Counted from the stretch's first letter, positions 12,490 to 56,503 are shown. The stretch is DNA of 64,000 nucleotides from an uncultured Candidatus Saccharibacteria bacterium (GCA_964459075.1 CAYWKE010000001.1:4626-68625), one strand, 5' to 3'. Notes: generated from the sequence alone by a model not told the origin. Made by a program: numbers and translations.

Positions 12490-12576
12490 GGTACCGGTAT
12501 GGTACCCCGTGCTGCCTGGTCAATTCAATCGACCTATACACAGGCCCGCACACCAGCGACTGTTTCCTGGGGTAAA

Positions 12577-16175: not shown

Positions 16176-16206
16176 GCTGAGGGCGTGGGAGCAGTTATCC
16201 AGTCCA

Positions 16207-21859: not shown

Positions 21860-21865
21860 AGGCGA

Positions 21866-23356: not shown

Positions 23357-23361
23357 ATCGT

Positions 23362-23468
23362 TTTAGTATGAGGGTGAAGTATGAGTATGAGTCGTGGTTT
23401 GTGCTACGCACAACACACGTTCACAAGCGAAGCGTCCCACATACTCATACTGCATACCCATACTCATA
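23362..23468. repeat. imperfect long inverted repeat built from GTATGAG/CTCATAC units between the FN3 gene stop and the ABC ATPase start
   Basis: Left arm 'AGTATGAGGGTGAAGTATGAGTATGAGT' (23367-23394). Right arm 'CATACTCATACTGCATACCCATACTCATA' (23439-23467). A ~40-nt spacer separates them. The right arm abuts the TAA of gene 23469... Confidence 0.45.
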
Positions 23469-24920: not shown

Positions 24921-24938
24921 GAGCGACACTGGTGGGGT

Positions 24939-44000: not shown

Positions 44001-46299
44001 CCACTGCCACATCTGTCACTTCCGCTTCGAGTTGCGCCCCGTCCGCATCCTCCTGCGCACCTGGTATTGGCGCATCCAATGCGTCGGTCTGCTCGGGTTC
44101 ACCCACAGACTCCGCACCATCGCCTGCAACTGCTACACTCTCCTCTTCTGCAGCCTCCTGCTCAGCAAGGAGTGCTGCCATCTCTTCGTCACTCTCAACT
44201 CCACTCTCACGCGTTCCTCCTTGCTCGCCCAGGGTAGTGGTTGCGGCGGGAGACGTCTCGTCTTGTTCTTCCACGTCTTCGGTATCATCAGCATCGCCAG
44301 GGGCTGTTTGAGGTGTCGTCGTCGGTATCGTGGACTCGGCGTCGGGCGCAGGTGTTTCAGTATCAGCTCCACTCAGTTCTTCTTCATCTTGTGCGTCGGC
44401 AGGTTCGGGCGTGGGTGCTGGCTCAGATGGTGCATCCGTTTCTTCGGAAGACCGCGTGTCAGATGCTTCGATCTCCTCAGACCCATCTGCATCATCGACA
44501 AGCTCCCACCCCGCCTCACAGAAGTAGCCGGTCTGCGCATACTCAGGTATGCGCAGGGTCTTGGGGACGTTGCGCGTCCACTGCTTCAGCGAGGTCACCT
44601 CCCCTTTTGCGTCCGGTAGGTGCAGCATGAGTCGGAAGTCATCCTGCCGTTCGCTCTCATTGGTGACGTTGAAGTACACCGTGGCTTTCGTGAGGCCATG
44701 GTAGGTCCTTCGGTCGCTCTTGATGATGAGGTTCTCGTTGTCATTGCTGTCGGTGAAGGTGAAGTCGATGCGCTCTTCTCCGGTAAGCAAGATGTCTGGG
44801 TGACGCGACGCGTCCTCAGCACGAAGCTCAGGAACGACGTTCTCACCGTCGATGGTCTGATCATCCTGCCATCGCGGCGCATCGTAGGTTGCATCGATCC
44901 ACAGACTCTCGAGGTACACGTTGGTCTCAACGTCACTGTTGCGAACGAACTCGAGCTGCACCACCAACTCATCGAGCTCATCCCACGCATCGATCTCGGG
45001 AAGTGCAAAGAGGAAGTGGCCGCCGTTCTGACTGTTCGAGAGCTCGTTCGTTATCGCGATCTCACCAGCGAGGTACCAGTGGTCGCGGTAGCGATAGCGG
45101 ACGAAGACCTTATCATCCTGGAACGCCTCACCAACACGCTCCGCACCAAGAGAGAGGCGCAGGGCGAGCGTGCGAATATCCTCATCCGGCACGAACGAGC
45201 CGATGGAGAATCCTTCGAACTCGAGGATGTTGCAGGGGGTACCACGCACCTCACAGATGGTTGCGGCCTCATCAGCATGCTCGGGGCGCGCTGGCGTCGT
45301 TTCATCATCGCTCGTATCGGCACCACCACCACCTTCATCGGTGCCAGCATCGTCGTGTGAGTCGCCCGCGGACTCGTCTTGAGAAGCGCCGGATCCAGAG
45401 CTCGCTCCCCCTGCAGATCCCTCAGTCGCCTCCTCAGTACCCTCTCGTGGTGAGGTGGTCGCCGTTGTCGTCGCACGTACTTCTTCCTGCAGGTCTGTTT
45501 CGGGAGCCACTTCCGCGCTTGAGGTCGCCTCGGTGTCCACCGCCACGTCGTCACCCTCATCTACTTCGACCTCATCCGCTACCTGCTCTTCTTCCAACTC
45601 CTCCTCGTTGGATCCACGTGCGGTATCCTCTTCGATAGCTTCGGCTTGATCCTCGACCGGTGACCCCTCGGATGGTGCCTGTGGTGACGACTCGTCCGGT
45701 GTGACGTTCGTATCTGTGTCGGGGTCGAGTGTGTCGGTCTCTTCGATCTCTGGCTCGGGTTCTGGGATGGACTCGGGATCTGGCGTTGGCTCGGGTTCTG
45801 GTTCTGGCTCTTGGGTGGGTTCGGGGTCTGGTGTAGGTTCAGGGTCTGGTGCCGGCTCCTCAGATACGACCGGCTCTGCTGCTGGCTCCTGTGCTCGCGC
45901 GGTGAGGGGCACGAACCGATGCGAGAGTCCCCGCACCACGTGCGGCAGGTACTCGATGAGCGCGGTCGTTGTTCCCTGTACGTCCGATGCTGTTGTGGTC
46001 GGCGTCGAGGTAGGGGTCAATTCAGGTATGTCGTCGATCTCACCTTGGGAGAAACCGATAAATGCCGAGTTCTCTTTCGAGAAATCGCTCAGAATGGCCT
46101 GGCCTGAGAGTTCCTGCGAACGAGCTGCGTCCACGTTCTCCCATCCCGCACCGCGCACATCGCTTGGAAAAATGTGGATGGTCTCTTCTTCGATCGATGC
46201 CCACCCGTACGCACTCCACAATAGGACAGAGCCCACCACGCCTACCAATAAAAGCGCGGCTCTCCAAGCAGCGTTCCTCCTTGAAACGGAAAACCTCAT
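26002..46299 (-). CDS. giant modular cell-surface protein (~6765 aa): signal peptide, acidic Pro/Glu tracts, four DUF2341-like domains (three followed by a LamG-like domain), FN3-like domains, beta-solenoid-like repeats, large internal duplications
   Basis: Single uninterrupted ORF 26002..46347 (20.3 kb). The track start is a GTG, and the ATG at 46297-46299 gives a classical signal peptide 'MRFSVSRRNAAWRAALLLVGVVGSVLLWSAYGWA'. DUF2341-like motifs occur four times ('WQYRIPIEIDNLGN...', 'WPNRIPITIQASQVDEELSNFPVYVDL...YYVYYGN', 'WLNRTEITIQASQVDTNVTDFPVYLDL...FYVYYGN', 'WGYRKRITVSNSGGALTNYPIQVTIDH...IYVYYGN'). Three of them (the second, third and fourth) are followed by a LamG/ConA-like region ('...TVEVWVNPDA...LTLDGRLDMVRVSS', '...LIASWWVNTT...LDELRFS'). 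Codon usage and composition are coding-like throughout. Confidence 0.85.
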   Translation of the reverse strand: MRFSVSRRNAAWRAALLLVGVVGSVLLWSAYGWASIEEETIHIFPSDVRGAGWENVDAARSQELSGQAILSDFSKENSAFIGFSQGEIDDIPELTPTSTPTTTASDVQGTTTALIEYLPHVVRGLSHRFVPLTARAQEPAAEPVVSEEPAPDPEPTPDPEPTQEPEPEPEPTPDPESIPEPEPEIEETDTLDPDTDTNVTPDESSPQAPSEGSPVEDQAEAIEEDTARGSNEEELEEEQVADEVEVDEGDDVAVDTEATSSAEVAPETDLQEEVRATTTATTSPREGTEEATEGSAGGASSGSGASQDESAGDSHDDAGTDEGGGGADTSDDETTPARPEHADEAATICEVRGTPCNILEFEGFSIGSFVPDEDIRTLALRLSLGAERVGEAFQDDKVFVRYRYRDHWYLAGEIAITNELSNSQNGGHFLFALPEIDAWDELDELVVQLEFVRNSDVETNVYLESLWIDATYDAPRWQDDQTIDGENVVPELRAEDASRHPDILLTGEERIDFTFTDSNDNENLIIKSDRRTYHGLTKATVYFNVTNESERQDDFRLMLHLPDAKGEVTSLKQWTRNVPKTLRIPEYAQTGYFCEAGWELVDDADGSEEIEASDTRSSEETDAPSEPAPTPEPADAQDEEELSGADTETPAPDAESTIPTTTPQTAPGDADDTEDVEEQDETSPAATTTLGEQGGTRESGVESDEEMAALLAEQEAAEEESVAVAGDGAESVGEPEQTDALDAPIPGAQEDADGAQLEAEVTDVAVEPTPATSTTSVESQETATVDERPEESIDFTDPDLTNEELLQALLAERAESEATSTASTQRQRYSCASSEEERWCDELSEDGVTCVDDRARIGSREETVYRDTWMAHSVAPGERNMEIGNFRRLANFFGGGLPRKPVPEYFDVKNSSENTYRIEPGQTLYFEMEISYPARTLGEFWIEAIGKKGSYGLLDPWWDGFWQYRIPIEIDNLGNANDLSEYQIYVEIDESLSDFWASVREDGGDIRFTSEQGEDQADWFDDAWPNRIPITIQASQVDEELSNFPVYVDLADLGPTFFSGIATSVDADIRVADADGNQVPREIVSASTTAQTGELYFRATSLSSTTDTTYYVYYGNAAAPLVADTDANGAVNVWDSNFALVTHMEDLTSSTIENSAGSSNDGTKQSSDNPAETNGRFGNAQDFFEDDVSHGDLGISTTHTVEVWVNPDALIGFNGGGDRRTDQYGYTILASAPGSGGVYAPWFTLGGTGGAADELRYCAYQSSATCNQSSAANLVTGQWYYMSATAVQGGSTIVKVNDNQVLSYTNAGDENFGNTFTLGDLRPGRQLTLDGRLDMVRVSSVVRSDGWLSATYRNMATATDFYATSTPEVNDPYTVTELDHWVQYFDYNGSTTAIWVQVDEIPANSTSTMYLYYGNGLATSLSDAFAPFTHTSLVDMHHVVRDDFGGGDTIEVYSLIDGNVVQLDTGATSSLDLGESISYGGGTFTATSVVRALGPIATKLEGGGNQDSLVPISFATDLFTIAVRTGSSANDEFHLFSPFGSSTVQLYNDTTLATTQVLATSTGASPVEDIVDGDIARVIATTPILLAYEFNTGDAITLYPATTRELYGINSLDTRVGQTQAGTSYEITCSGGTGASVSGQDVTAMYDASGNCTSGGDGNGAAVRISSSSAPIMSTQSRDGDGIEATSYWPEKEFATEFMLTDTGSYIAVACEPDSGEVNLAIVTATGSVQATGVCTPAGANPGKAYFGDDNSANFDPGWRIISTDTPPKPFYAIWEDQTDDDEQNFIAAPQSRQYAFPHPTVAFGAQETSNVPAWNMQDFRWYLNEDAQTPTDPWPLGSEDLDENASIGSDAAITAGDVLRLRVSMQLNNATSTALDDAFTLEVAQANIGDSCDLSSLAWNPVEQQSSSSAPWRGFDNASVAEQSAISATVLASTTDAGTYEEENNSAALSVDYAPGDILEFDWVLEANAPETNSSYCFRMVGVGGTAVISPANYPQLDTNSAPDEPIARTPFDNAKTGDLTPELTFTASDLAGDDLHYQVQLATTTDFSSTLVDVNSTVTGSPLSFTNISNTSDKAPFSAGQTIRFTVPGASALDNDVTHYWRIRARDPGGSDQWGPWSDPPLSFTTDTTIDVSTWFQTTEEQFVTDSLRGVFASTSDEVRLGGVVAEFGTVDLNNNEWTTVNLSGSYDDLVVVASPRYDETVDPRSPRVRNKGQTSFEIKVDNHAQTPTPSGVTVVDWLAVEAGDWTINDGGSGVRVVAGSETTDGQFGWDGGASVEVGTPANVVFAPAFSGTPVVLHTLASDNDPTWAATKADDGDSGDPPSDTNLRLQILTSYANNDHTAAEEIDYVAFEEFHGTTSAGVEMDAAFQTTGGNLGLDGIFDDPTHNIPWTRQFLSLPVVYIVAQGGENGGNGSWALRDTEVAVTVTDFYGSVDEDGPDNTRNGHADEEGSVIGFSAASGTIENAFDGTLEGTAIDFDDGAIGNKWGSFSWNDDQTTGSITYQLQYLSSSWLPIPDEDLPGNEAGTTTGPFDLIDLDTETYNVIRPVAIFSSPSTTTGPILYDWTVQWREGVLTPTTTSPFPYEQVASSTTQFFFETIDPQNESLVYEIQISSSTAFASGTLSFTSDSDPFGAFTRADGNPETSPFTSGEEIVFTASSSINLIDGDTYWWRVRARDLAGDNLFSFWSDERSFTIASTTAVSTWHQTTNEQFLRNSLTGITGVNDNLEIQSVIGEYGTIDVNGSDWTPVTLSQDFSDLVVVASVRYDAPDVRQRTARVRNKTTNSFEIKVDNDDGTTDPTGTTTIDWIAMESGTWSVENETGSVKLVADTAEDVTDIQSNGYSDSDGYRTIAFPISFDGSPVVLATVATENNSAWVTTFVNDGAALANEPTNSQFGVALGASFQTPPPMIEDIDWIAIDVGTGTNSGGEFDAVVTIDSVDGSDPDAINFTAPFTNGPPLVALVQQLGEKGGDGGWAVYNDSVPATSALIYATIDEENGDGGSRGHRTESVGVLAFELATGTLTRINEALTGTATSETITFSDGTGPKWGEVTWRDVTPATSTIRYYVEYATGTDWFLIPPADIPTNATGATTSPIDLGDLDFLTYSEIRLVAAFTCTDSGDCPVVEDWSVTWSEGIEVSGIARAYDRSALVTSGTVRVALDGVIQPSTATIQPDGTWTLTNVNALPGTVMTVFVDGGATTSRAVAVSVYDGIGDEEGMELYQRHLTLGSNKLMTFTNADLQQYDNSVAGDPDLFFDVDVNNDLDTCAVGGCVDANLYVLASTTYRPDSAGSGNVATHDVVVDGELIADGNTIALTGSWQNQGRFAAGTSLVRFDATSTTESIDSTGAATSSFYNLTFGNASGNATFTLATPLDVNGNLAIAYGTFSPGSASTTVARAFQISSTGSFQKGSATTTLDGTGSYAFNDFSTPKQDLGAIDITGTGRVAVMGSDIRLTDVRILSGATLDAGGAGNQLEVQGDFLNSGIFTPRTGEVLFSATTTGRTITPGVSSFYDVTFDGVGGNWAFSQPDVTALRDYTIATGTVTLATGVTTVGGSFRNTGGTFQHNNGQVTLTSATVGQQVEAGGSDFYQLRFNNPTGEWTFLDSAATTSDDFLVSQGNVILPSDTLSVGGDFTIDAGGSFDANDGEVILRTLAGPQTVRAGGSEFYDVTFTGLGVGGADWLDTAWLNRTEITIQASQVDTNVTDFPVYLDLSILGAEFFDSVQGDGDDIRITTDDGTTLVPREVVAIATSSGTGEVHFLAPSLSSTVDTSFYVYYGNPDDTGVADADQNGRNAVWAEYLAVFHLQEDASGITTNDLYTDSTGNGFDGDDRIGATGKSGKLGSGQEFDGNAGDFINLPISLVDGRDDLIASWWVNTTQSDSFAIVSGINAGNNNEYLLFFNGASEYRQYTGAGVGTSANYPIAPPANGGVWNYFVSERLDNPDDSNVFYNGVQETENPGVTHDTLSITANDLVIGQEQDVGQYNFDPGQALQGLLDELRFSTSSRAAGWYATEYNNQDAPATFMATSSQESRPGRTFVDLDAEVARHFTIESGLVNFPTDTLTVGGDFDAAGGEFTAGFGEVEFDATTTGFTIDPGDNPFYDVTVNSGAGGWEVIANATSTNDWTLAAAASFVAATGTRIEVAGELVNTIGAATVWSGSTLALTSATNYTLGAKAAADESYGTLRIGPNTDIRLWNSDAQSYAVDPSGSIYSQDHSGNDGELYIWGSYGRSSGGDYWSAGTDFDFTPLAGPAARPVSVRFADGASATYQGSAALSIVGTSTATTSVAAQGSGTYDLTLSGASLSAAYASFTDTATSGLELLASTTVTNFEPIAFVLSTDGATSLSLDATTIDENPDSQWFGLSFATSSGVATGSNVSATGSPASYWWFRDTTGSFAGEAFDDDPGGNPGNIRWDDSGFTVTISGTVYEDEGAGAGSSACATANVVRVVVDGGSSYTGSCDPVTGAYSVGGVQFSGDADIMAYLDNAGGGERAATVSRTPTGAIADFDLYESYVILRHEDVAALTTANLATYDSSDDADIPFTATTLPTDLTIAHDTALLVWSGKTFTPEGDVTLLSSGSGLFEDGTLRLAGSATLTMLGGETVTVGGSWIADGASTFTTATADLRFVATTTGKRISSPDDLYTMTFEGAGGEWTIQDPLTVNQSIALTDGTVLGTTTITLEVGSLSGNGVLNLTDGSLDLEGEGPFGGDSDWYVHDLTLGNGSSASTSKVGAGTTTISGTFTILGNHTFNAGDDLLRLTGSGNVLTGAGTFNAQTATTTYAGTSGVVIAARIYHDLVLAPEGAGSPTYTLAASTISVGRDLYVGNGSTSVSVTANTNDPILDVAGDFLIATSATYIAASANDTRIAGSYRNTGTLTAPITSTFVFDSADTGETIEPGDSPFANVRFLSASGGWAVLASATATAGWYLSDAASFAVASGTRIAVGGPFENELLDAATDWSTSTLALYGGASFSVNASSSDGDVYDELEVSGGTDVRLWNSVAATYDVGSTSSLYSQDHDRNDGDLYIWGAYQPTMGSDHWSYATDFDGTLLDATSSRPVSVVIASGSDIVVRGASLSVLGSTTATTTIEGDGAGTYALSVAGGSFSMRFASLRGVDAAGLTFTGAPTIGVFENNDLELEIDAGTIMTVGGTVIDANPLKTFRSNRFGTSTGVATGTNIIATGTSIATWRFPQAVGVLEGEDFDIDPGGDPGYLIWDDSDALITVQGRVYLDEGTTLVGSSVCDGSALNVTLVVGGAPATSTSCSDGPAVFTFTGIGFTEGDPLIVYLEGASGIQAATVTVDPVTNILDMDLYQDRVIVRHEDVNPITIVNMANHDSDDDANIPFDAEDAATDTLTLAAGTKLIVWGSKEFAPGGTMTLTPLGSGAPEDGSLHLYADALLTAQGTETYQIGGSFLVNGGASFAAASSTLEFTATTTGKSLDLNSSPLNTVRFIGAGGGWSFAESAATTTGDIEQAAGAVTFPSANLAINGSFEVTGGSFSAATTSTWRFISDSGAENVRLAGSAAPSMTFVGSSTFTFPESQATSTGDVSLSAGAAVFPSGTFAVGGSFDVSGGTMTAPGELRLVGSDLGETITLAGQSLASLTTAGDGSWSFAESAATTTGSLRALGGSLTAPASTLSIGGSFFAASSTTFSAGAGGMRFVGAGGGNTITTNSALLNEVIVNGTGSWSLTDNASTTGAVRLLAAGGFTQNAGTTLEVGGVFENRIGGATTWAAGSTLYLNSGLNFLVGAKTDAVETYATLQVGSTTDVALWRSSATVYDVATTGSLYSQDHLDQDGDLYIWGTYERTSGNEYWRHSIDFDGTALSGVNRRGVDVRVASGSQLLFTGGTLDIIGASGFVATTTIDVQGGSGAFGWEIAGGTFNMQRFTVSGLDAQGLTFTDAPTVSQLTQGEFILSADGGTMLTVASSTFDQNPTKLFAQVGFSTSTGVATGSNVTVSGTTANFWTFVNEFGVLAGEDYDLNDTDLCGAVRWADSTCLEVSQAHYRFRADNDGEGVPAEEWFDPSWGYRKRITVSNSGGALTNYPIQVTIDHVPGVGKMQPDFDDLRFTDSTGTTSIPYYIESKVDDAEAVVWVTLPTIPAGGTTPIYVYYGNAGVGSAASSSETFSFIDDFEDNDLDEYAPSSGLDKTRFGLSTSFNYQGAYGLAAASTQEGLQTENGGITQDAAGSAFGPGETLRVYQYVDTAEFDEPCFLFAVQGFGDNYAVCLDQFFNGDRVTLAQDVDWSDDSGTVVASTSVSFATDWYRIEIDWLLNDTLNVSVVRDSTDTEIASFSYSAGSPSEGGIGFSHWGQNGGFDFVTVRPYSATEPTTITGTEQVNDGASWSAAQDTVNARQQAEQNFRLRISVENSGAQITGQQFRLQYAEKGSFGTCEAVPSVEYDDVPAVAGCGLSPICMVASPQFFDQDPTTQLLDTDFMGTFVPGYLVEDSSNQSTSMDLDANEFTEIEYALEFTANANQNAYCLRTTDGGLELDSYPRVPEVRVLQIPVLGDWTLAGNYNGVIPITLTEGTTTAVIATGTVTDLNGSGDIIGATSTLYRSGLPSGEACTADDNSCYRLGNESCALDCAGTSCDITCTADVQFFAEPTDIGAFSGEHWLSYVIVEDRSGEVATATSLATELDTTFGITLTTEGIDFGTLTLGTTTGSVASSTLRNTGNTAIDVDLAGSNLTAPGSEILASNIRYATSTFTSASCAICNFLATTSNQFELDLPKPTSTVPIIDDIFWGITIPTGISGVTHEGINTFFAVSD

Positions 46300-46463
46300 T
46301 GAGTTGTCCACACAGACCGATAGGGTCTTGCGAAACAGACACCCCACAACCCCCGATCTGTACTCTCAGTATCTCACGAAGGGTACCTGCCAACCAGCAA
46401 AAACGTTGCCAAAACTGTGTATTTCTGATTGCTTTTGCGTCCGAGTGCGTACCCGACAACATA

Positions 46464-46510: not shown

Positions 46511-48007
46511 TTACTTCACGAGCTTGCGCACGTCCTCGATCTCCTTGTCGAGGAGCTCCTCCGAGATCGAAAGCGCGTCTTTCAACCCTTCCAAGAGCTG
46601 TCGTTCGTTGTCGGTCATATTCGGTTTGTGGGCCAGGGTAAGGACCTTCTCCTCTATCTCCTCGCGCAGGACATCGAAGATGCTGACTAGTCGCTCAGAG
46701 GCTTCGATGGCCTCGACCTTGATGCGGTCGTACTCATCGGCGCGTTTTCGACGCTCTATGATGATGATGCCGATCGCGATGGCAAGCAGGATGATGAAGA
46801 TCATGGAAACCCAGTAGACCGGTCCGAAGATGCCCGGACCTTCCTCCTCTTCCTCATCCCCTGGCAGGGTTCCAGTGATGGTGACCGGCGCCTCAACCTC
46901 CGTGGTATTCCCCGCAAAGTCGGTCGCCACGACCGTCACCGTCTTCTCACCCGGTGTCATGTTGCCGACGGTCACGGAACCGCTCTCATCGAGCGCATTC
47001 GGGCTCACCCGATCGACCTCGAGACCATCGAGGAGTATCGCAAAGGTGTCGATGCCGGAGGTGAGATCGGTCGCGCCGGTGATGGTGACGGTGAACTCAA
47101 GATCGCCGCCGACGACGTCGATCTCAAAAGGCTCAGGCGGCGTCGTGTCGATGCGGATGGTCTTCTGTGTCGGGTCGCTCCACCCGTTGCGATTTTGGAA
47201 CGCGAGGAAGAAGTGCCAGACACCGTCAGCAAGGTCTTCGTAGACCGCATTGACCGTCGGCGGCTCGTGATCGGTGTACTCAATGTCTGATGAGGTCGAG
47301 CTCGTACCGATACCCATGCGGGTCGAACCGATGCCGGGGAGGATCTCCCAGTTGAACTCTGCATTGTTGATGGCGTACCACGTATCCTCCTCCTCGTGCG
47401 TCTCCGAATCGATACGTCGAGGCGGCTGCGGTGGTATGCCCCCGCCGCCAGAGCCGATCGCCGAGACGGGCTCCGGCTCGGGCGTTGGCGCGGGTGCCGC
47501 TGCGGTGATGGTGTAGGAAGCACTACCCGAGTCGCCGGTCACATCTTGTCCCGCGCCCGCAAGGATGGTTACCTCGTCGACCGAGACCGCTCCGGTACCG
47601 ATGGCCGTGCCGCGAAAGGTGATGGTCGCAATGTTGCTCGTGCGCGCAAGCGGTGTCGTACCGCCACCGCTGAAGGAAATGGTTCCCGCGCTTGCAGAGA
47701 ACGAAGGTTCTTCGACCCATAGGTTGAAGGCGCTCCCGTTCGTCGACACACTCGTGACCGACAGTACCGACGTATCGTAGCGGAGGGTTCCTTGCGCGGA
47801 GTTGACCGGGTCTCCCTCAGGATTGATGGCGATGTTGACCTGGAACGTACTCCCCTGTGCGTGGGAGCCACTCGATGGTGAGAACTGCAGCGATGCCGCA
47901 AGCGCCGGGTGGGCCCACGCGCCGACGATGCCGAAAGCGAGTACGACCCAAACGAGAGCGACGTACCTGCGGATAGATGAAGTGATCGATAGGTGCGGGG
48001 GGAGCAT
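46511..48007 (-). CDS. membrane-anchored cohesin-like domain protein (paralog family A)
   Basis: 498 aa. Signal 'RYVALVWVVLAFGIVGAWAHPALA'. Cohesin-like 'LQFSPSSGSHAQGSTFQVNIAINPEGDPVNSAQGTLRYDTSVLSVTSV...LWVEEPSFSASAGTISFSGGGTTP'. 'RIDTTPPEPFEIDVV' Ig-like region. TM 'VYWVSMIFIILLAIAIGIIII', then a cytoplasmic coiled coil ('...EAIEASERLVSIFDVLREEIEEKVLTLAHKP...'). Confidence 0.6.
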   Translation of the reverse strand: MLPPHLSITSSIRRYVALVWVVLAFGIVGAWAHPALAASLQFSPSSGSHAQGSTFQVNIAINPEGDPVNSAQGTLRYDTSVLSVTSVSTNGSAFNLWVEEPSFSASAGTISFSGGGTTPLARTSNIATITFRGTAIGTGAVSVDEVTILAGAGQDVTGDSGSASYTITAAAPAPTPEPEPVSAIGSGGGGIPPQPPRRIDSETHEEEDTWYAINNAEFNWEILPGIGSTRMGIGTSSTSSDIEYTDHEPPTVNAVYEDLADGVWHFFLAFQNRNGWSDPTQKTIRIDTTPPEPFEIDVVGGDLEFTVTITGATDLTSGIDTFAILLDGLEVDRVSPNALDESGSVTVGNMTPGEKTVTVVATDFAGNTTEVEAPVTITGTLPGDEEEEEGPGIFGPVYWVSMIFIILLAIAIGIIIIERRKRADEYDRIKVEAIEASERLVSIFDVLREEIEEKVLTLAHKPNMTDNERQLLEGLKDALSISEELLDKEIEDVRKLVK

Positions 48008-48025
48008 GCTAAAACGTGTCGCGGA

Positions 48026-48502
48026 CTACTCGACCCGAACGACGTTCATCTTGAACGCGTTCTTTGAGTGACCCTTCAGGGGAAGCGTCAGTACGAGAAC
48101 CCCGTCTTTCTCTTTCGCATCTGCTTCTTCGGGTTCGATCTCCTCAGGCAGGATGATCTGGCGGTAGAAGTCGCCCCAGCTGCACTCCTCGAGTGAGAAG
48201 TCGCCATGCGCGTTACCAATGAGATCCTCAGGGCGCACCGACGAACCACTGATCGTGATCACATCGTTCTGTCCTCCGATAGAAACATCGAGGGATGCGA
48301 GGTCAACCCCGGCGATCTGGGCGAACACCACGACCTCGTTGTCGGTCTGGAAGACATCGACCGGCAGCTGCAGCGCGTTGTGCACGGGCACCTCGCTCGG
48401 TGCCGCATTCGGCGCTTTGGGATGTGGTGCGGCCTGCTCTTCGCTCGCCGCATCTCCCTTCACTACCCCTTTCCCTTTAAGCTTCTCCATGAACGTCGCC
48501 AT
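48026..48502 (-). CDS. Hsp20/alpha-crystallin family small heat-shock protein
   Basis: 158 aa. ACD-like core 'LQLPVDVFQTDNEVVVFAQIAGVDLASLDVSIGGQNDVITISGSS...KDGVLVLTLPLK'. ATG at 48500-48502. Confidence 0.8.
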   Translation of the reverse strand: MATFMEKLKGKGVVKGDAASEEQAAPHPKAPNAAPSEVPVHNALQLPVDVFQTDNEVVVFAQIAGVDLASLDVSIGGQNDVITISGSSVRPEDLIGNAHGDFSLEECSWGDFYRQIILPEEIEPEEADAKEKDGVLVLTLPLKGHSKNAFKMNVVRVE

Positions 48503-48659
48503 AGCTGGGTCCCTTGGTTACGCGTTGCTAATGTACTCATCCCCCGATACGGTAGCGTGTTCGCCCCCACGGCGTCTGCACGCTGCATCAGACCTATATA
48601 GTATACCGAACAATCGAGTGCTCTGGTGAGTTCGTTTTGTGGATAAAACGTGTACAACG

Positions 48660-50564
48660 CTATCCGCTCCAGCAGAAGAGCATGATGGAAAAATCGGCGA
48701 GCTCGACGAGGCCTGAGAGATTGATGTCAGCAGCGAGGTCAGTCGTGTTCCAGTTGAAGAGGAGAATTGAGAAGTCGGTGAGATCGACGAGGGTGTCCTG
48801 ATTGATGTCAGCACGCTGACACTGATCCCCAACCGGGGCTTGTCCGACACCAATGGGTACTGGTGCGCTCTTGGCACTCTCAAGACCCTCTGCAGGCAAG
48901 CGCGCTCGCGCGAGCAGGTTGTAGGCACCCAGCGAAAGACCGTCGGTTGCGTACGTGAGCGTGTAGGCGCCCGTTCCCGCCGCGGTCGTCGTTGCGGTCG
49001 ATGCGCCTACGATGCGCCTCCCCTCTTGCTCGACGAACACCTCAAGGAGCGATTCGGCAGGAGCGTACCCCGACACACTGATCACGTCACCCGGATCGAT
49101 CTCGTCTTGATCGACCGATATCGTCGGGGGGATGACCACACCTGCGATCGCGTTCTCTGTGTCAGCGCGTAGCGTGATGGTGGTGTTGTAGGTACCGGAG
49201 CGCACTCCACTCGCGTCTTCTGCGTATACAGCGAAGGTGTACGTGCCGCGCTCAAGGCCTGTGACCTCGGTCGAGAAGGTCCCATCACTGCGCGCGGTGA
49301 GCGAACCCACCGAGTCCCCATCTTGCAGAACCGTGACGCGCGAACTGGGGTACGCCCACCCCGATAACGAGACCGATGCCTGTCTGAGGAATTCTCCACC
49401 GTCATCGCTGCCGCCACTACCGCTTCCACCGCCACCACCTCCCGAAGAGCTCCCTCCCGAGCCGCTCGTACCTGGGCCTGAGCCCGAACCACTAGTACCC
49501 CCGCCGGTTCCCGTGCCCGTGCCAGGACCATCCCCATCTCCGGTTCCACCACCGTCGCCACCCCCCGTACCACCGGTCGTTGAGCTGGTCGTTGAGGAGA
49601 ACGTCGTTGAACCGACCGAGCCGGTGGGCCCAGGCCCGATCGGCACAGCACCAATGGTGAAGCGAATAGGAAACTCGGACGTCTCGTTACCATTGAAGTC
49701 ACGACAGATACCAAAGAACTCGTACGTCGTTGTTGCAGCGACGATGAACGGGGGTGAACGGTGGTTGGGCGTGGTCGAAGCATTGTCCGCGATCATTGTG
49801 TAGGTCATGCTCGCGTAGGCGGTCGAGGATGCCTCATCGTACTTACAGATCGCGACATCGTCGGTCAAGAGTGAGAACTCGACCTCCTCGTTGATACCTG
49901 CGACCAGCTCATCAAGTGCCGGGCGCAGACCAAATACCACCGGCGGCTCATTGTCGATGAACCGCGCACCAGCCGTGACCTGCTCGATGATGTAGATCGC
50001 GGCAAGGGTCGTATCGATGGTCACGTCGCTTGCGTTTCTGGTCGCAACCGTCACCAAGACCGGCCCAGTACCCGGATTCACGAGCTGATCGCGTCCGGTG
50101 CCTCCGAAGGTTGCCGTTGTCCCCAACTCGATGCGCACCGTCTCACCTGCATTGAGGCCGAGCGTGGAGCCGAGGTTGAAGATGAGTCGGGTCGAGGAGC
50201 CGTACGTGAGATCTACCCCAACGGTCGATGTGCCCGGGGTCGAGGTAGCCAACACGCGGTCGGTGTAGTTGAGGAGCGAGGACGTGCCGGTGGTCGCTGT
50301 CGAGAAGTCGATGTCCGTGATATCGAACTCGCTCGGCATGAAGAGCCCGTTGCGAAAATCCACCACCACGTCGCCGCCCGGAGGAACCGCAGCGACCGTC
50401 GTAAACAGGATGCGGTGGTTTGCAGGGGTCTCGGGCGCTGAGGTGGAAATGAGGTCACTGACGAACTGGAGCCGGTCAGCGAGCGCCTGCGGCACCGCCC
50501 CGAAGAGTGTCAGCAACACGCAAAGCGTCACGCACGCCAGAACCAGACCCAGGAATGGTCGCAT
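48660..50564 (-). CDS. secreted protein: N-terminal beta domains + long Gly/Ser/Thr linker + Ig-like domains + C-terminal dockerin (paralog of 16207..17385 in its C-terminal half)
   Basis: ORF 48660..50693 trimmed to the ATG at 50562-50564 ('MRPFLGLVLACVTLCVLLTLFGAVPQALA', signal peptide). Linker 'TGGTGGGDGGGTGDGDGPGTGTGTGGGTSGSGSGPGTSGSGGSSSGGGGGGSGSGG'. C-terminus 'DINQDTLVDLTDFSILLFNWNTTDLAADINLSGLVELADFSIMLFCWSG'. Confidence 0.65.
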   Translation of the reverse strand: MRPFLGLVLACVTLCVLLTLFGAVPQALADRLQFVSDLISTSAPETPANHRILFTTVAAVPPGGDVVVDFRNGLFMPSEFDITDIDFSTATTGTSSLLNYTDRVLATSTPGTSTVGVDLTYGSSTRLIFNLGSTLGLNAGETVRIELGTTATFGGTGRDQLVNPGTGPVLVTVATRNASDVTIDTTLAAIYIIEQVTAGARFIDNEPPVVFGLRPALDELVAGINEEVEFSLLTDDVAICKYDEASSTAYASMTYTMIADNASTTPNHRSPPFIVAATTTYEFFGICRDFNGNETSEFPIRFTIGAVPIGPGPTGSVGSTTFSSTTSSTTGGTGGGDGGGTGDGDGPGTGTGTGGGTSGSGSGPGTSGSGGSSSGGGGGGSGSGGSDDGGEFLRQASVSLSGWAYPSSRVTVLQDGDSVGSLTARSDGTFSTEVTGLERGTYTFAVYAEDASGVRSGTYNTTITLRADTENAIAGVVIPPTISVDQDEIDPGDVISVSGYAPAESLLEVFVEQEGRRIVGASTATTTAAGTGAYTLTYATDGLSLGAYNLLARARLPAEGLESAKSAPVPIGVGQAPVGDQCQRADINQDTLVDLTDFSILLFNWNTTDLAADINLSGLVELADFSIMLFCWSG

Positions 50565-50571
50565 GTTCCCG

Positions 50572-51042
50572 TTATACCACGACCTTCCGCTCGCTCGCAG
50601 GGGAGCGCTGTGCAATACGTACGCGCATGTCCCGCCGGGTGCGACGCGCATCGAGGCGGAAGTTGAGCAGAATGAGCGAGAGCAGTGCCACACTCACCAG
50701 CGTGGTATAGAGGAGCGCGAAGGTGTTCCCTGCGTTGCCCGCCCGCGCCGGGAGTGGTGCAGGAGCATCGCGGGTCAGGGTCTGGAGCTCTGCCTCAGCT
50801 GCTGCGACCGCGCGCTCGCGCTCAGCAAGCTCACCCTCGCGGCGGGTGAGCTCAGCCGTGATCTGGTTGAGCTCGGTAGGAGCGACCGCGGCAGAGGTAC
50901 CGATCCCCGCTTGCTGCAGAGAGAGAGTCGAACGGGTAAGGGTCGTCCACGAGAAGGTGAGCGCGAGAGCGCACACGAGAGCGCCGACGAGAGCTAGCTC
51001 CCATCCACCCCGATTGTGCTGTACTCCGTGGTGGCGACGCAT
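50572..51042 (-). CDS. small two-TM protein with central coiled coil (hypothetical)
   Basis: ORF 50572..51288 trimmed to the ATG at 51040-51042 ('MRRHHGVQHNRGGWELALVGALVCALALTFSW...'), because the track start overlaps the upstream gene. Second TM 'FALLYTTLVSVALLSLILLNF'. Confidence 0.4.
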   Translation of the reverse strand: MRRHHGVQHNRGGWELALVGALVCALALTFSWTTLTRSTLSLQQAGIGTSAAVAPTELNQITAELTRREGELAERERAVAAAEAELQTLTRDAPAPLPARAGNAGNTFALLYTTLVSVALLSLILLNFRLDARRTRRDMRVRIAQRSPASERKVVV

Positions 51043-51056
51043 AGTATCACTATACC

Positions 51057-52160
51057 TCAGGAGAAGAAGAGGAAGATCCCCACGAGGACGAGAATGGTCA
51101 GTGACAGGAAGACGAGCATGACCGATGAGAGTCGTGAGGCGAAGGAGACCGGCGCAGGACCCTTCGCGCGGTAGCCGGCTTGCTTGAGCTGTGCACGCAC
51201 GTAGAGACGCGCACCACCCCACACGATGAGGAAGAACAGGAGCAGTCCGCCAAACGCGATACCGAGCTCCTTGGTCGGAATGACCCAAAAGCTGGTCTCA
51301 CGGGTGATGCTCTGCTTGCGGTCGACCCCGTAGGAGACGGTGATGCGTGCATCATAGCGTCCCAGGAAGAAGCCCTCCTCAGGTTCCCACGTTGTTTGGT
51401 AGCGACGCTCCCCGCCGGGCGAGGCCCCACCGCGCCCGCCTGGATTGACCTCGAGCTTGGCGACCTCATTGCCGAGCATGTCCTCAATGGTGAGGATGCC
51501 GACAGGCCGCTGGAGGACCGAGCCGGTGTTCTCCACGACCGTGGTGAAGATCGCAGGTGGGTACTGGTAGAGTGAGCGGTCAGTGGAGAACTGGGTGATC
51601 TTGAGATCCTCAACGATGTCACCATTGATCTGAATGTTCATGAGGGAGGCAACCTGGAACCCTATCCCAGCCCCCGAGCTCTGCACCCGATCGGCTTGAC
51701 GGTCGAGCACAATAGCTCCGAAGTGCCCTCCAGGGGGTGAATTTGCTGGCGGCGAGATCACGTACCCGATACTGTCGCTTTGCCCGGGTGCGAGGGTAAC
51801 CTGGGAGCGCGTGAGCGTCACCCACGAGGCGAGCGTGAGTCCCGTCTCATCATCGCCCGTGGCGAAGCGGGGCTTGCCATCGATGTCGGTCGACTCGACG
51901 TTGCGCGAGAAGAGGTAGTAGGTCTGGGTCTCATCACTGACGTTCGTGACCGTCACCTCGCCCGACAGCGTCTCCCCCGGATCGATACGTTCCTCGATCA
52001 GGGTCGGTTGCATCTGTGCACCGATCTGCTGGGCTTCTACTCGCTCAACACACGCCACGCCGAACGTGCACAGCGCAAGCAGGGCGATAGCGCCAACGCG
52101 CCAAGCCCACGCATGGGCGACGGTGCGAAACGCAAAGGGGGATTCGATCATACCTTCCAT
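51057..52160 (-). CDS. DUF916/DUF3324-like cell-surface protein with C-terminal TM anchor (paralog family B)
   Basis: The ORF-track start (52214) is a TTG. ATGs at 52158-52160 ('MEGMIESPF') and 52149-52151 are preferred. Signal 'AWAWRVGAIALLALCTFGVACVERVEA'. Ectodomain '...VTVTNVSDETQTYYLFSRNVESTDIDGKPRFATGDD...LAPGQSDSIGYVISPPANSPPGGHFGAIVL'. C-terminal TM 'FGGLLLFFLIVWGGARLYV' plus a second hydrophobic segment. Confidence 0.55.
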   Translation of the reverse strand: MEGMIESPFAFRTVAHAWAWRVGAIALLALCTFGVACVERVEAQQIGAQMQPTLIEERIDPGETLSGEVTVTNVSDETQTYYLFSRNVESTDIDGKPRFATGDDETGLTLASWVTLTRSQVTLAPGQSDSIGYVISPPANSPPGGHFGAIVLDRQADRVQSSGAGIGFQVASLMNIQINGDIVEDLKITQFSTDRSLYQYPPAIFTTVVENTGSVLQRPVGILTIEDMLGNEVAKLEVNPGGRGGASPGGERRYQTTWEPEEGFFLGRYDARITVSYGVDRKQSITRETSFWVIPTKELGIAFGGLLLFFLIVWGGARLYVRAQLKQAGYRAKGPAPVSFASRLSSVMLVFLSLTILVLVGIFLFFS

Positions 52161-52276
52161 ATAGTTAGGGACAATATGCTCGCCAGTGTACCCCAGGTCA
52201 ACAACTCGTACCAAGTGGCGCTATACACAAAGACCCGCACGTGTGCGGGTCTGTGTGTCATAAGCGCCAAGCGTCT

Positions 52277-53470
52277 CTAGAAGACCGGAGTTGCAACGTA
52301 CGTAAGTGTTGCAGTGTAGTCGTCTGCTGCTTCCTGCAGCGTTCCGATCTCGATCTTGTAGCCAACGCGTGTGAAGCTCTCCCCTGAGACAGGTGCCGAC
52401 GTGTAGCTGACCGCTTCACTGTTATAGAACACCTCTACCGGGTTGTTCACGAAGTTACCGACGTAACTCGAGGTTCCAACACCGCCAAAGTCAAGCGCGG
52501 TGCCCACATCGTCGTCATCCGAGGTCAAACCCCAGTGACCATACGTGTTGGGTACACCAAAGTTGTTGAGGGGATTCGCCCAGGGCGTACCTACCGGGAC
52601 CTCAGAGCCGTTGTTGAACGGATCGATGGTCGCTGTGTTACCTGCCGTCAGCGTTTGATCCGCCTCGACCGTCACCGTGAAGCCGTTGAGGGCATTGGTG
52701 TCGATCCTGAGCTCCTGCGCGAGGAACCTCGGCTGATTCGTTTGCAAGATGCCGAAGGCAACCGAAGTTGCTGTTGTGGATGCGTACGTCGCGAGAGGCT
52801 CATCGTTGACCGTTGTGCCTGAGGCAACACCAGCGATGGTGAAGGTGAGAATGGTCTCGACCTCTGCGGTCACAGTAACGTCGTCGATGACCGCAACGCG
52901 GGTATCGCCCGAGTCTGCCATGGTCCCAGCGACCTCGATGACGTACGAGTCTGCGACGTTGGGATTGGCGATATAATTGCCGTTCCCTCCGACCACGATC
53001 TGTACGACCGTGCCGGTCGCGATCTCGTCAGGTGGCGTATCTGAGGGACACACCGTGAGTTCAACGGTGTCTGTGACGTTATCAACATCGCTCACGTACA
53101 TCTGGTTCGTTACGCCGTTGTTACACGCAAGGTCGTTCGCGATCTGCGTGATACCTCCTCCCGGTACAGATGCTACCGTCACATCTGAGGTCGAAAGAGA
53201 CCCGAAGTCGAAGTCGAGGTCTCCGTCGACGGGATCGAAGGTGATCACTATCGTCTCACCTGCGTTGATCGCGCTCGAAAGCTCGAACTGGATCGTGTGC
53301 GTTGCCGTCGCGCCCAGATCGGAATCTGAGATCGTGTCGGTCACGTCAATGAGCGCTGCGGCGTCTGCCGTGTGGATCCAGTTGGGCAGGCCAAGCGACC
53401 AAGCGAGTAATGCCGCAATGACCGCAAGGACCAATGCCTTGGAGCGGAACTGCGAAAGATCTGTCGTCAT
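52277..53470 (-). CDS. secreted surface protein with WxL-like C-terminal domain
   Basis: 397 aa. Signal 'ALVLAVIAALLAWSLGLPNWIHTADAAA'. C-terminal ~110 aa: 'TYGHWGLTSDDDD...DYTATLTYVATPVF'. Gene 56504.. has the same arrangement (a W-G-L/Y motif about 70 aa before a '(D/Q)Y(T/S)xx(L/I)xY(V/I)xxP(V/T)F' end). Confidence 0.5.
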   Translation of the reverse strand: MTTDLSQFRSKALVLAVIAALLAWSLGLPNWIHTADAAALIDVTDTISDSDLGATATHTIQFELSSAINAGETIVITFDPVDGDLDFDFGSLSTSDVTVASVPGGGITQIANDLACNNGVTNQMYVSDVDNVTDTVELTVCPSDTPPDEIATGTVVQIVVGGNGNYIANPNVADSYVIEVAGTMADSGDTRVAVIDDVTVTAEVETILTFTIAGVASGTTVNDEPLATYASTTATSVAFGILQTNQPRFLAQELRIDTNALNGFTVTVEADQTLTAGNTATIDPFNNGSEVPVGTPWANPLNNFGVPNTYGHWGLTSDDDDVGTALDFGGVGTSSYVGNFVNNPVEVFYNSEAVSYTSAPVSGESFTRVGYKIEIGTLQEAADDYTATLTYVATPVF

Positions 53471-53506
53471 GCGTAAAATGCTAGCTAGCGTTTCACTTGT
53501 AATAGC

Positions 53507-53526
53507 GAGTTCGCAGCGGCGAACTC
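53507..53526 (-). promoter_or_regulatory. hairpin in the putative 5' leader of gene 52277..53470
   Basis: 8-bp inverted repeat GAGTTCGC/GCGAACTC with loop AGCG, 37 nt upstream of the ATG at 53470. A TATACT element lies further upstream at 53652-53657. Confidence 0.3.
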
Positions 53527-53711
53527 ATGACGAGCGTGATCGACCTCCCAGCGAGGTACGCACCACCGATTACTGAGCAAAGCCCGTTGGGATATCGAGG
53601 TTTGCTTGATGGGGCGCGGGTTCAATCGCTGAAGTATCAAGCTCACAAATTAGTATACGTCCACATGACGCTGTGTGAGAACACGCGCTTGTGGATAACG
53701 CAACTCTGTGG

Positions 53712-56433: not shown

Positions 56434-56503
56434 TGTACGGGTGATACAGGTGGCGCGAAAGGGATGGTCGTGCATAACGGTAAGAACAAAAAGGAACAAA
56501 AAG

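Follow-up and report, generated by a model that had tools for sequence, protein, structure and literature searches.

A membrane-anchored cohesin and a secreted dockerin protein as a possible anchor for a Pam-like pilus in a Paceibacteria-type Patescibacterium

Introduction

The Pam pilus of the CPR comprises the PamA/B/E pilins, the tip protein PamT, the membrane-anchored chaperones PamC/D, and the anchor PamR. A Pam pilin consists of an N-domain, a linker strand that acts as the donor strand and is highly conserved, and a C-domain. PamC and PamD are PapD-like chaperones with a C-terminal transmembrane (TM) helix. In the Saccharimonadia model the proposed anchor is PamR, in which a donor strand at the N-terminus is combined with two FnIII domains and a TM helix. 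Pam pilins are reported mainly in Saccharimonadia and Microgenomatia, and neither cohesin nor dockerin nor Hsp20 appears in the description of the system (Troman et al. 2026, bioRxiv 10.64898/2026.03.03.709456).

The locus that we describe here also contains a cohesin and a dockerin. The closest cohesin-dockerin systems are the type I cellulosome pairs and the anchoring scaffoldins (for example, Clostridium thermocellum CipA/OlpA/OlpC and C. acetobutylicum CohA2-Doc0917), and the closest non-cellulosomal cohesins are from Archaeoglobus fulgidus (2xdh) and C. perfringens (2vo8/2w1n). Chaperone-usher terminators or anchors such as PapH, and the basal pilins of sortase pili, are functional parallels to what we propose: the last subunit joins the fibre, accepts no further subunit, and ties the fibre to the envelope.

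Results

A conserved block of four genes

We analyzed a stretch of 64,000 nucleotides (the window) of an uncultured Patescibacterium. The core of the locus (locus 2) is:

48660..50564, minus strand: gene B, 634 aa; signal peptide, pilin-type N-domain with linker strand, Ig-like domain, Gly-rich linker, two Ig-like domains, dockerin
48026..48502, minus strand: Hsp20/alpha-crystallin gene, between B and A
46511..48007, minus strand: gene A, 498 aa; signal peptide, cohesin, two Fn3/Ig-like domains, TM helix, cytoplasmic helical hairpin
26002..46347, minus strand: giant ORF, 6781 aa, directly downstream of A, with DUF2341 repeats

A sequence-only reading had described A and B as a cohesin/dockerin pair flanking the giant ORF. 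Both ORFs are present on the minus strand as described, but they lie together on the 5' side of the giant ORF.

The B-Hsp20-A-giant ORF block is conserved across dozens of species of Paceibacteria. Among species representatives, Hsp20 immediately precedes A in 68/69 loci, B (pilin N-domain and dockerin) is upstream of Hsp20 in 53/56 loci, and a gene with a pilin C-domain is found farther upstream of B in 43/47 loci. An ORF of at least 2000 aa lies directly downstream of A in 58 of 63 species loci. L002–L007 have the same gene order as locus 2.

The Hsp20 gene, which the sequence-only reading did not mention, matches Pfam HSP20 (PF00011) with 38.3 bits (the cut-off is 20.8) and falls below every NCBIfam equivalog cut-off. 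By hydropathy, its product has no N-terminal hydrophobic segment and no signal peptide. HMM searches of the giant ORF found no dockerin, no cohesin, and no pilin domain, including the pilin C-domain.

Protein A is a membrane-anchored cohesin

The modules of A, all on the minus strand, are:

47504..47896: cohesin, residues 38-168
46874..47413: Fn3/Ig-like pair, d2 (residues 199-286) and d3 (residues 295-378)
46514..46822: TM helix (residues 396-418) and conserved cytoplasmic helical tail (419-498), from hydropathy and AF2

Residues 46-153 match Pfam Cohesin (PF00963) with 34.3 bits, above the gathering cut-off of 24.1, and precomputed annotations assign PF00963 to most of the 120 homologs listed for A. 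The AF2 model of A (mean pLDDT 90.7) has an N-terminal helix, a beta-sandwich at 38-168, the two Ig/Fn3-like domains at 199-286 and 295-378, and a TM helix from 396. The sandwich is nine-stranded and superposes on solved cohesins; the best structural matches include PDB 1ohz, 4dh2, and 6kgc. At the C-terminus, the modelled helices span 396-459 and 466-497 and form a hairpin. Hydropathy identifies a signal-like N-terminal segment and a single TM segment (399-417), and the TM helix is followed by ERRKR. A profile search of A found no SLH or LPXTG matches. A crosses the membrane once; outside, two Fn3-like domains form a stalk that presents a genuine cohesin, and a conserved helical tail lies in the cytoplasm.

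Of the modules of A, this tail is the best conserved (mean pairwise identity 0.57), and tails of this type are the C-terminal module in 200 cluster representatives. Some relatives of A lack the cohesin and have just d2, d3, the TM helix, and the tail, which is the nearest thing to the architecture of PamR. These relatives occur in unrelated gene contexts, outside of pilus clusters, so homology between A and PamR is unsupported.

Protein B combines a pilin-type N-domain with a dockerin

The informative regions of B, both on the minus strand, are:

49968..50477: residues 30-199, N-domain and the next beta-strand, both with homologous counterparts (N-domain and linker strand) in the pilin-like gene 52277..53470
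48663..48812: dockerin, residues 585-634, with FSI(L/M)LF.W after each of its repeats (D586-D597 and D613-D624)

Support for the start of B comes from 17 homologs and from a gene call of 634 aa that is identical to it. Its C-terminus, searched alone, matches Dockerin_1 (PF00404) with 21.7 bits (E = 2.4e-4), just under the cut-off of 22.9; full-length B has no match to this model at E ≤ 0.1. B also matches dockerin_GC (E = 1e-3), and PF00404 is precomputed in 10 of 17 homologs. The first Ca loop is D586-I-N-Q-D-T-L-V-D-L-T-D597, with T at position G6, and the second is D613-I-N-L-S-G-L-V-E-L-A-D624, with S at position D5. Across 60 syntenic orthologs of B, the Ca ligands are conserved in both repeats (repeat 1/repeat 2: D1 in 59/60, N3 in 56/54, D5 in 59/57, and D12 in 59/60), and DFSI is invariant after both loops. 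AF2 assigned pLDDT of 43-52 to residues 580-634, in a model made without Ca and from 18 sequences. B is a secreted protein, and its C-terminus has the duplicated Ca loops of a dockerin. The cohesin and dockerin modules proposed from sequence are real, with core residues that are conserved; in the dockerin, each Ca ligand is retained in at least 54 of the 60 orthologs of B.

The sequence-only reading regarded B as cargo, but B is not just any cargo: its N-terminal part resembles a protein encoded nearby. Residues 30-199 (170 aa) align to the pilin-like protein with an hhalign probability of 99.1% (E = 1.8e-18, 157 columns), and the reciprocal HMM matches have E = 8e-10 and 6e-11. The strand motifs are alike as well (VAVIDDVTV and IYIIEQVTA). 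An HMM search found no strand-accepting pilin C-domain in B. The homology of B's N-domain and strand to the adjacent pilin argues for pilus anchoring rather than cellulosome-like display.

A putative Pam-like pilus cluster adjoins B

Upstream of B are:

51057..52214, minus strand: two-domain beta protein, candidate membrane-anchored pilus chaperone, with C-terminal TM segments; paralogs at 53712..55379, 55174..56697, and 17382..18539
52277..53470, minus strand: pilin-like gene, 397 aa; N-domain, conserved strand GDTRVAVIDDVTVTA, C-domain
56504..63733, minus strand: 2409-aa protein, candidate tip adhesin, ending in a pilin-type C-domain (about residues 2238-2409)

All components of the cluster have signal peptides. 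The pilin-like protein matches NCBIfam CPR_Pam_pilin_C over positions 2-148 of 148, with E = 4.2e-7 and 30.2 bits, which is below the cut-off of 55; 3 of 6 pilin-like orthologs match this model at E ≤ 0.01. In an alignment that includes five syntenic orthologs, an invariant GDTRV..VTVTA separates the two halves of the protein. No Pam name appears among the best 120 of 493 matches to the pilin family. The C-terminus of the 2409-aa protein matches the pilin C-domain HMM (E = 1.4e-10) and CPR_Pam_pilin_C (E = 0.0096).

Hydropathy predicts C-terminal TM segments in all four of the paralogous two-domain beta proteins. An hhalign comparison within this family gave a probability of 100% (E = 2e-63). 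Their matches to known families are weak and limited to WxLIP/fn3_5, and similarity to PapD/FimC was not detected by sequence.

Paralogs of A and B elsewhere in the window

Related proteins are encoded at two other places:

13351..17385, minus strand: locus 1, with the cohesin-TM proteins 13351..15147 and 15144..16325 and the dockerin protein 16207..17385
12436..13257, plus strand: small adaptor-like protein with a signal peptide, a cohesin (HMM E = 4e-17), and a dockerin (Dockerin_1, 31-36 bits); an ortholog is present in another genome, L008

A was thought to be the third cohesin protein of the window, but there are four cohesin modules, with the fourth in the small plus-strand gene. In total, the window has four cohesin bearers and three dockerin bearers, and the small protein has both modules. 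The partner of B could be another cohesin of the window.

Pairwise alignments confirmed that the proteins of locus 2 are true paralogs of those of locus 1 and that the similarity of the cohesins is not compositional. A is 26% identical to 13351..15147 over 374 aa (E = 3e-21), with a separate match to the tail (E = 2e-5), and is 30% identical to 15144..16325 over 109 aa (E = 5e-12). We also searched with HMMs for the modules of A, built from 64 sequences of the A family. The cohesin, d2, d3, and TM-tail were all found in the 13351 protein, so the proposal of a shared module order holds fully for this protein; for the 15144 protein it holds only in part, as just the cohesin and d3 were found. 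The motif at the d2/d3 boundary of A, RIDTTPPEPFEI (DTTPPE), has counterparts in the 13351 protein (RVDITPPEELTI) and the 15144 protein (KQDITAPELFEI).

The proposed resemblance of B to the 16207 protein also stands: the C-terminal half of B is 40% identical to it over 238 aa (E = 2e-43), and the last 50 residues are identical at 33 positions (66%). The C-terminus of the 16207 protein matches Dockerin_1 with 30.7 bits. Its N-terminus is Cys-rich and has no pilin domain, which implies that the dockerins of this genome are not restricted to pilus subunits.

The idea that the whole pair was duplicated next to the giant adhesin does not fit the comparative data. Judging from the sequences, locus 1 and locus 2 are ancient paralogous blocks and not a local duplication, because the block at locus 2 is conserved in dozens of species and the orthologs of locus 1 are found separately (full-length, in L008).

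Discussion

How the locus compares with described systems

Like the Pam system, this cluster has a pilin-like C-domain that matches CPR_Pam_pilin_C (below the cut-off), a large protein that also ends in this C-domain, and three two-domain beta proteins that end in TM segments. In contrast to Pam, the donor strand is on a separate protein, B, which ends in a dockerin, and the candidate tip protein has 2409 aa, while PamT is a single-domain protein. A resembles PamR in that two Fn3-type domains precede the TM helix, but in A a cohesin lies right after the signal peptide, where PamR is described as having a donor strand.

The differences from cellulosomes are more extensive. A is anchored by a C-terminal TM helix with a conserved cytoplasmic tail, instead of by SLH or sortase; cohesins occur one per protein; there are no CBMs and no enzymes; and the dockerin bearer B begins with a pilin-type domain. 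Also, a gene for a cytoplasmic-type Hsp20 is fixed between the pair, and the host is a Patescibacterium. Unlike PapH and sortase pili, the system that we propose has no usher, sortase, or outer membrane, and its joint would be non-covalent.

A model for pilus anchoring, and the alternatives

The best explanation for these observations, in which we have about even confidence, is that a Patescibacterium of the Paceibacteria type has here a gene cluster for a Pam-like donor-strand-exchange pilus, with locus 2 as its proximal end. On this reading, we infer that B is the basal subunit of the pilus and is docked on the membrane cohesin A. The linker strand of B would be donated to the C-domain of the last pilin. 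Polymerisation would stop at B, because B has no acceptor domain. The long Gly-rich linker and the two Ig domains would cross the envelope, and the dockerin would plug into the cohesin of A in a Ca-dependent manner, which would fasten the filament to the membrane. The tip adhesin would be the 2409-aa protein, whose only pilin domain is the terminal C-domain, and the three two-domain beta proteins with TM anchors would act as chaperones.

A possible but doubtful alternative is a generic system for modular display, in which the cohesins of A, 13351, and 15144 are interchangeable sockets for B, the 16207 protein, and the small adaptor, and the N-domain of B is an exposed adhesive or structural domain that is not part of a filament. 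The sequence-only reading had suggested a modular system with multiple scaffolds and cargos next to the giant adhesin. Some modularity is plausible, given four cohesin bearers and three dockerin bearers in the window, including the adaptor-like protein with both; nothing shows that the giant ORF is displayed via this pair. The 66% identity between B and the 16207 protein in the dockerin makes cross-binding conceivable, and the non-pilin N-terminus of the 16207 protein also fits with display. On the other hand, the strict one-to-one adjacency of B and A in 53 of 56 species and the separate conservation of the block at locus 1 argue for a dedicated pair, and the N-domain and strand of B are homologous to the pilin of its own cluster. 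A cellulosome-like complex that degrades polysaccharide is very improbable: besides the cohesin and dockerin modules themselves, nothing points to it. The cohesin and dockerin proteins of the window give no signal for glycoside hydrolases, CBMs, SLH, or sortase, each has a single cohesin at most, anchoring is by TM helix, and the genome of the host, a Patescibacterium, is reduced.

We think it unlikely that the modules of A and B are not partners at all. If so, the EF-hand pair of B might be a Ca-dependent stabiliser or might bind the host surface or peptidoglycan, A's cohesin might take another ligand such as the giant DUF2341 protein, and the adjacency of the genes would reflect co-expression only. 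Consistent with this, in a mirror-tree analysis the cohesin and the dockerin showed no signal once their shared phylogeny was accounted for (partial r = 0.18), the AF2 confidence for the dockerin is low, and the giant ORF is linked to A (58/63) as tightly as B is. Outside cellulosomes, cohesins and dockerins whose partners are not known are reportedly common, too. However, to our knowledge, all solved dockerins with the duplicated motif bind cohesin, as established for type I-III pairs (e.g., PDB 1ohz, 4dh2, and 6kgc). Given the complementary topology and the conserved adjacency, binding of B to A is the simplest reading.

Building on the docking of B on A, we speculate, with little confidence, that the joint is also a trans-membrane coupler. 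B, as the extracellular base of the pilus, would sit on A, and the co-encoded, cytoplasmic Hsp20-like protein would bind A's unusually conserved cytoplasmic hairpin. The cell might in this way sense or control the assembly or load of the pilus from within, and A might organise the giant DUF2341 protein as well.

Our search of the literature found nothing that links cohesin–dockerin with Pam pili or with Paceibacteria. We suggest that a membrane "socket" (the cohesin) and a secreted "plug" (the dockerin) may serve here to fasten a newly described kind of pilus, and not to display enzymes.

A and B carry a cohesin and a dockerin

From 13 to 64 kb of the window, every gene is on the minus strand, and the GC content is about 0.60. 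Named homologs are found in Kaiserbacteria, Nomurabacteria, and Parcubacteria, all of the Patescibacteria/Paceibacteria group. Locus 2 includes these genes:

48660..50564, minus strand: B, a dockerin protein of 634 aa; homologs and an identical gene call agree with its start
48026..48502, minus strand: Hsp20 gene, between B and A; 38.3 bits to Pfam HSP20 (cut-off 20.8), without a signal peptide
46511..48007, minus strand: A, a membrane-anchored cohesin protein of 498 aa; 34.3 bits to Pfam Cohesin (gathering cut-off 24.1)

A is a member of the cohesin family. Its AlphaFold2 model (mean pLDDT of 90.7, with 64 homologs as input) has an N-terminal hydrophobic helix, a beta-sandwich (residues 38–168), and two Ig/Fn3-like domains, d2 (199–286) and d3 (295–378). 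These are followed by a predicted transmembrane (TM) helix that starts at residue 396 and runs on into a long cytoplasmic helix, and by a second helix (466–497). A is similar to both of the cohesin-TM proteins of locus 1, 13351..15147 (26% identity over 374 aa, E = 3e-21, with the TM helix and tail matching separately at E = 2e-5) and 15144..16325 (30% identity over 109 aa, E = 5e-12). Searches with HMMs for the modules of the A family showed that the window has four ORFs with the cohesin (A, 13351, 15144, and a plus-strand ORF, 12436..13257). The same HMMs place d3 in A, 13351, and 15144, and restrict d2 and the TM-tail module to A and 13351.

No other part of A is as well conserved as the cytoplasmic tail (mean pairwise identity of 0.57, versus 0.47 for the cohesin), and the search pattern that our scan for A loci chose by itself fell in this tail. 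The TM and cytoplasmic-tail module (46514..46840, minus strand) is C-terminal in all 200 matching representatives of 50%-identity clusters. Among the homologous proteins P0258–P0403, 37 cluster representatives form a cohesin-less class of about 310–370 aa with d2, d3, TM helix, and tail. At the loci L089–L092, the genes for these proteins have a DinB-like gene on one side and a gene for an AI-2E transporter on the other.

B begins with a signal peptide, a well-modelled beta domain (33–192), and a second beta domain (210–304). Its C-terminal half has a disordered Gly-rich linker (308–394), two Ig-like domains, the first of which is above the Big_6 cut-off, and a final segment of 50 residues. 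In isolation, this segment scores 21.7 bits against Dockerin_1 (E = 2.4e-4, cut-off 22.9), and the equivalent segment of 16207..17385, the dockerin protein of locus 1, scores 30.7 bits. B and 16207 are 40% identical over 238 aa (E = 2e-43), and their dockerins are identical at 33/50 positions. The calcium-ligand positions D1, N3, D5, and D12 are kept in both dockerin repeats in at least 54 of 60 syntenic orthologs of B, followed by an invariant DFSI and W, so the similarity is not merely compositional. B's own dockerin has a threonine for the loop-1 glycine and a serine for the D5 of loop 2, and both substitutions are common to its closest relatives. By its motif and at the level of the family, we identify this segment as a dockerin; B itself is marginal by Pfam score, and the dockerin is poorly modelled in the predicted structure. 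Our dockerin HMM found three bearers in the window (B, 16207, and, weakly, the plus-strand ORF) and found no dockerin in either of the window's giant ORFs. Foldseek comparison of the model of B to the PDB gave generic multi-Ig matches only, and no structure of a Pam pilin was among them.

Locus 1 is an old paralog of locus 2

The sequence-only reading described locus 2 as paralogous to locus 1 and proposed that the whole cohesin/dockerin pair had been duplicated. The modules and the paralogy are borne out, as is clear from the alignments of A to 13351 and of B to 16207, but synteny in relatives shows separately conserved, old blocks. In the related locus L008, genes for an ABC transporter and FtsX are followed by genes for proteins of 623 aa and 313 aa, a dockerin protein, and then cohesins. 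The alignment of 13351 to its homolog P0109 spans both proteins in full (E = 7e-73), and 16207 is 41% identical to the L008 dockerin protein (E = 4e-73). Because each block has its own orthologs in other genomes, we ruled out a recent local duplication. The separate conservation of locus 1 argues that the two loci are old paralogous blocks that were not duplicated in this genome.

The maximal ORF of 15144..16325 overlaps 16207..17385 by about 120 nt, so the true start of 15144..16325 is probably further downstream. The N-terminus of 16207 has Cys-rich DUF4215 / myxococcal-type repeats in place of a pilin-type domain, and the 628-aa protein of locus 1 did not match the pilin family. Near locus 1 is another cohesin protein:

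12436..13257, likely start near 12574, plus strand: small protein; signal peptide, cohesin (HMM E = 4e-17), and a match to Dockerin_1 that exceeds the cut-off

The combination of a cohesin and a dockerin in one small protein recalls an adaptor scaffoldin. This ORF is convergent with locus 1 in the window and co-oriented with it in L008 (12399..13172). Because this ORF joins a cohesin to a dockerin, and because 16207 has DUF4215 instead of a pilin domain, there may be a broader plug-and-socket repertoire, as the sequence-only reading proposed.

Between the giant ORF and locus 1 (20651..24929, minus strand) are a gene for a secreted protein with multiple Fn3 domains and the genes of an ABC transporter of the MacB type (an ATPase with a long C-terminal extension, and an FtsX permease). 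This trio is directly after the cohesin gene in L002 and before the locus-1-type block in L008. Also in L008, a gene for an IS200/IS605-type Y1 transposase (6625..7278) is inserted within the locus-1-type cluster on the opposite strand.

Gene order is conserved across species

The order B, Hsp20, A is repeated in every related contig that we examined, in which A is 34–54% identical. To survey one genome per species, we searched 80 loci from GTDB representatives with HMMs, and we counted only loci with enough flanking sequence. The Hsp20 gene is directly upstream of the cohesin gene in 68/69 loci. Upstream of Hsp20 is a protein with B's N-domain and a dockerin (53/56 loci), and still further upstream is a gene with a pilin C-domain (43/47 loci). 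The Hsp20 protein has a well-conserved N-terminus, 'M.TFM.KLKGKG', and core, 'EC.WGDFYRQIILPE'. Because A is conserved best in its tail and the position of the Hsp20 gene is fixed, we speculate that there is an intracellular partner. A scan for promoters and terminators from 46 to 51.4 kb gave counts at chance level. Directly upstream of the B ortholog, some loci have an FGE-sulfatase-family gene (L002 6727..7542, L004 6615..7460, and L005 6263..7120), which is absent from the window, L003, and L006.

The sequence-only reading also tied the system to the giant ORF (26002..46347, minus strand, 6781 aa). DUF2341 repeats are the only domains that we detected in this protein: HMM searches found no dockerin, cohesin, or pilin C-domain, and hhalign of its last 232 aa to the pilin family was negative. 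These negative results rule out the giant ORF as a dockerin cargo or a pilin-domain protein. Yet an ORF of at least 2000 aa nearly always begins within 1.5 kb downstream of A (58/63 loci). Overall, what that reading observed is confirmed, and its interpretation holds in part. A cellulosome is ruled out because none of the window's cohesin and dockerin proteins has a CAZyme, CBM, or SLH domain.

B is next to a candidate Pam-like pilus cluster

Upstream of B is a candidate pilus cluster:

51057..63733, minus strand: Pam-like pilus gene set, with a 397-aa pilin-like protein (52277..53470), a 2409-aa protein (56504..63733), three paralogous two-domain beta proteins, and 50572..51288

The Pam pilus was described in 2026 in Ca. 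Mycosynbacter amalyticus (bioRxiv 10.64898/2026.03.03.709456). In its pilins, an N-domain is followed by a linker strand and then by a truncated Ig-like C-domain, and the subunits polymerise through donor-strand exchange; the chaperones PamC and PamD are PapD-like and carry a TM helix at the C-terminus; PamT, the tip, has a C-domain only; and PamR, which has a strand at its N-terminus, then two FnIII domains and a TM helix, is proposed, still as a prediction, to terminate and anchor the filament. Pam pilins were found mainly in Saccharimonadia and Microgenomatia, and the paper does not mention cohesin, dockerin, or Hsp20 (bioRxiv 10.64898/2026.03.03.709456).

The single informative match in NCBIfam was NF058581 ("CPR_Pam_pilin_C, Pam pilus system pilin subunit"). 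It matches 52277..53470 across the whole model with 30 bits (E = 4.2e-7), which is below the curated cut-off of 55, and matches the C-terminus of the 2409-aa protein more weakly. The C-domain HMM of the local pilin family matches that C-terminus with E = 1.4e-10, so the 2409-aa protein ends in a pilin C-domain; its N-terminal domain is BclA_C-like, below threshold. None of the best 120 of 493 matches to the pilin family was named as a Pam protein. The paralogous two-domain beta proteins (51057..52214, 53712..55379, 55174..56697, and 17382..18539) have C-terminal TM segments and, judging by these sequence features only, fit the architecture of PamC/D; sequence searches against PDB and Pfam found no PapD-like similarity. 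The protein encoded by 50572..51288 is small and has a coiled coil as well as two TM segments.

A proposed anchor for the pilus

Profile-profile comparison aligned B (24–199) to the local pilin family (32–201) over 157 columns (probability 99.1%, E = 1.8e-18). The aligned region includes a strand that is near-invariant in the local pilin family, 'GDTRVAVIDDVTVTA', which corresponds to the donated linker of the Pam pilins. B's version, 'LAAIYIIEQVTAG', has the same hydrophobic-x-hydrophobic-I-(D/E)-x-V-T pattern. The C-domain HMM did not find a pilin C-domain in B. Beyond the strand, B runs through about 90 residues of flexible linker and two Ig domains to the dockerin, and the gene after next is A, which is a membrane-anchored cohesin on a two-Fn3 stalk.

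So, B combines a pilin-type N-domain with a dockerin, A combines a cohesin with a TM anchor, and their genes always occur together; beyond this, we infer the steps of the mechanism. If B follows the Pam model, it would lie at the fibre's proximal end, as a strand donor without an acceptor: it would give a strand and could not take one. B would thereby terminate the filament, and in the simplest mechanism, it would plug the filament into A via its dockerin and A's cohesin. The reading with the best support is that in Paceibacteria, a cohesin-dockerin pair anchors a Pam-like pilus, and we think that the full mechanism could equally well prove right or wrong. A crude mirror-tree analysis of 60 syntenic sets gave no signal of cohesin-dockerin co-evolution beyond phylogeny (r = 0.81–0.97 for all modules; cohesin-dockerin partial r = 0.18).

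PamR resembles A in architecture only. We considered homology between them via the cohesin-less d2-d3-TM-tail family, and dropped it because that family is not in pilus clusters. In the literature that we searched, we found no description of a cohesin or dockerin linked to Parcubacteria, Paceibacteria, or Pam pili; a cohesin-dockerin pilus anchor would be a new combination of two known kinds.

Implications

The Patescibacteria account for much of bacterial diversity and presumably live attached to host cells. To our knowledge, almost nothing is known about how they build and fasten their surface appendages. Should a Pam-like pilus in Paceibacteria indeed be fastened by a cohesin-dockerin joint, this would be the first role of the module in pilus biogenesis, and the Pam system would then include another large class of the CPR. 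The joint would also provide a small, testable pair of domains (about 130 and 50 aa) for biochemistry on uncultivable organisms. A further layer is suggested by the strict conservation of the Hsp20 gene and by the conserved cytoplasmic tail.
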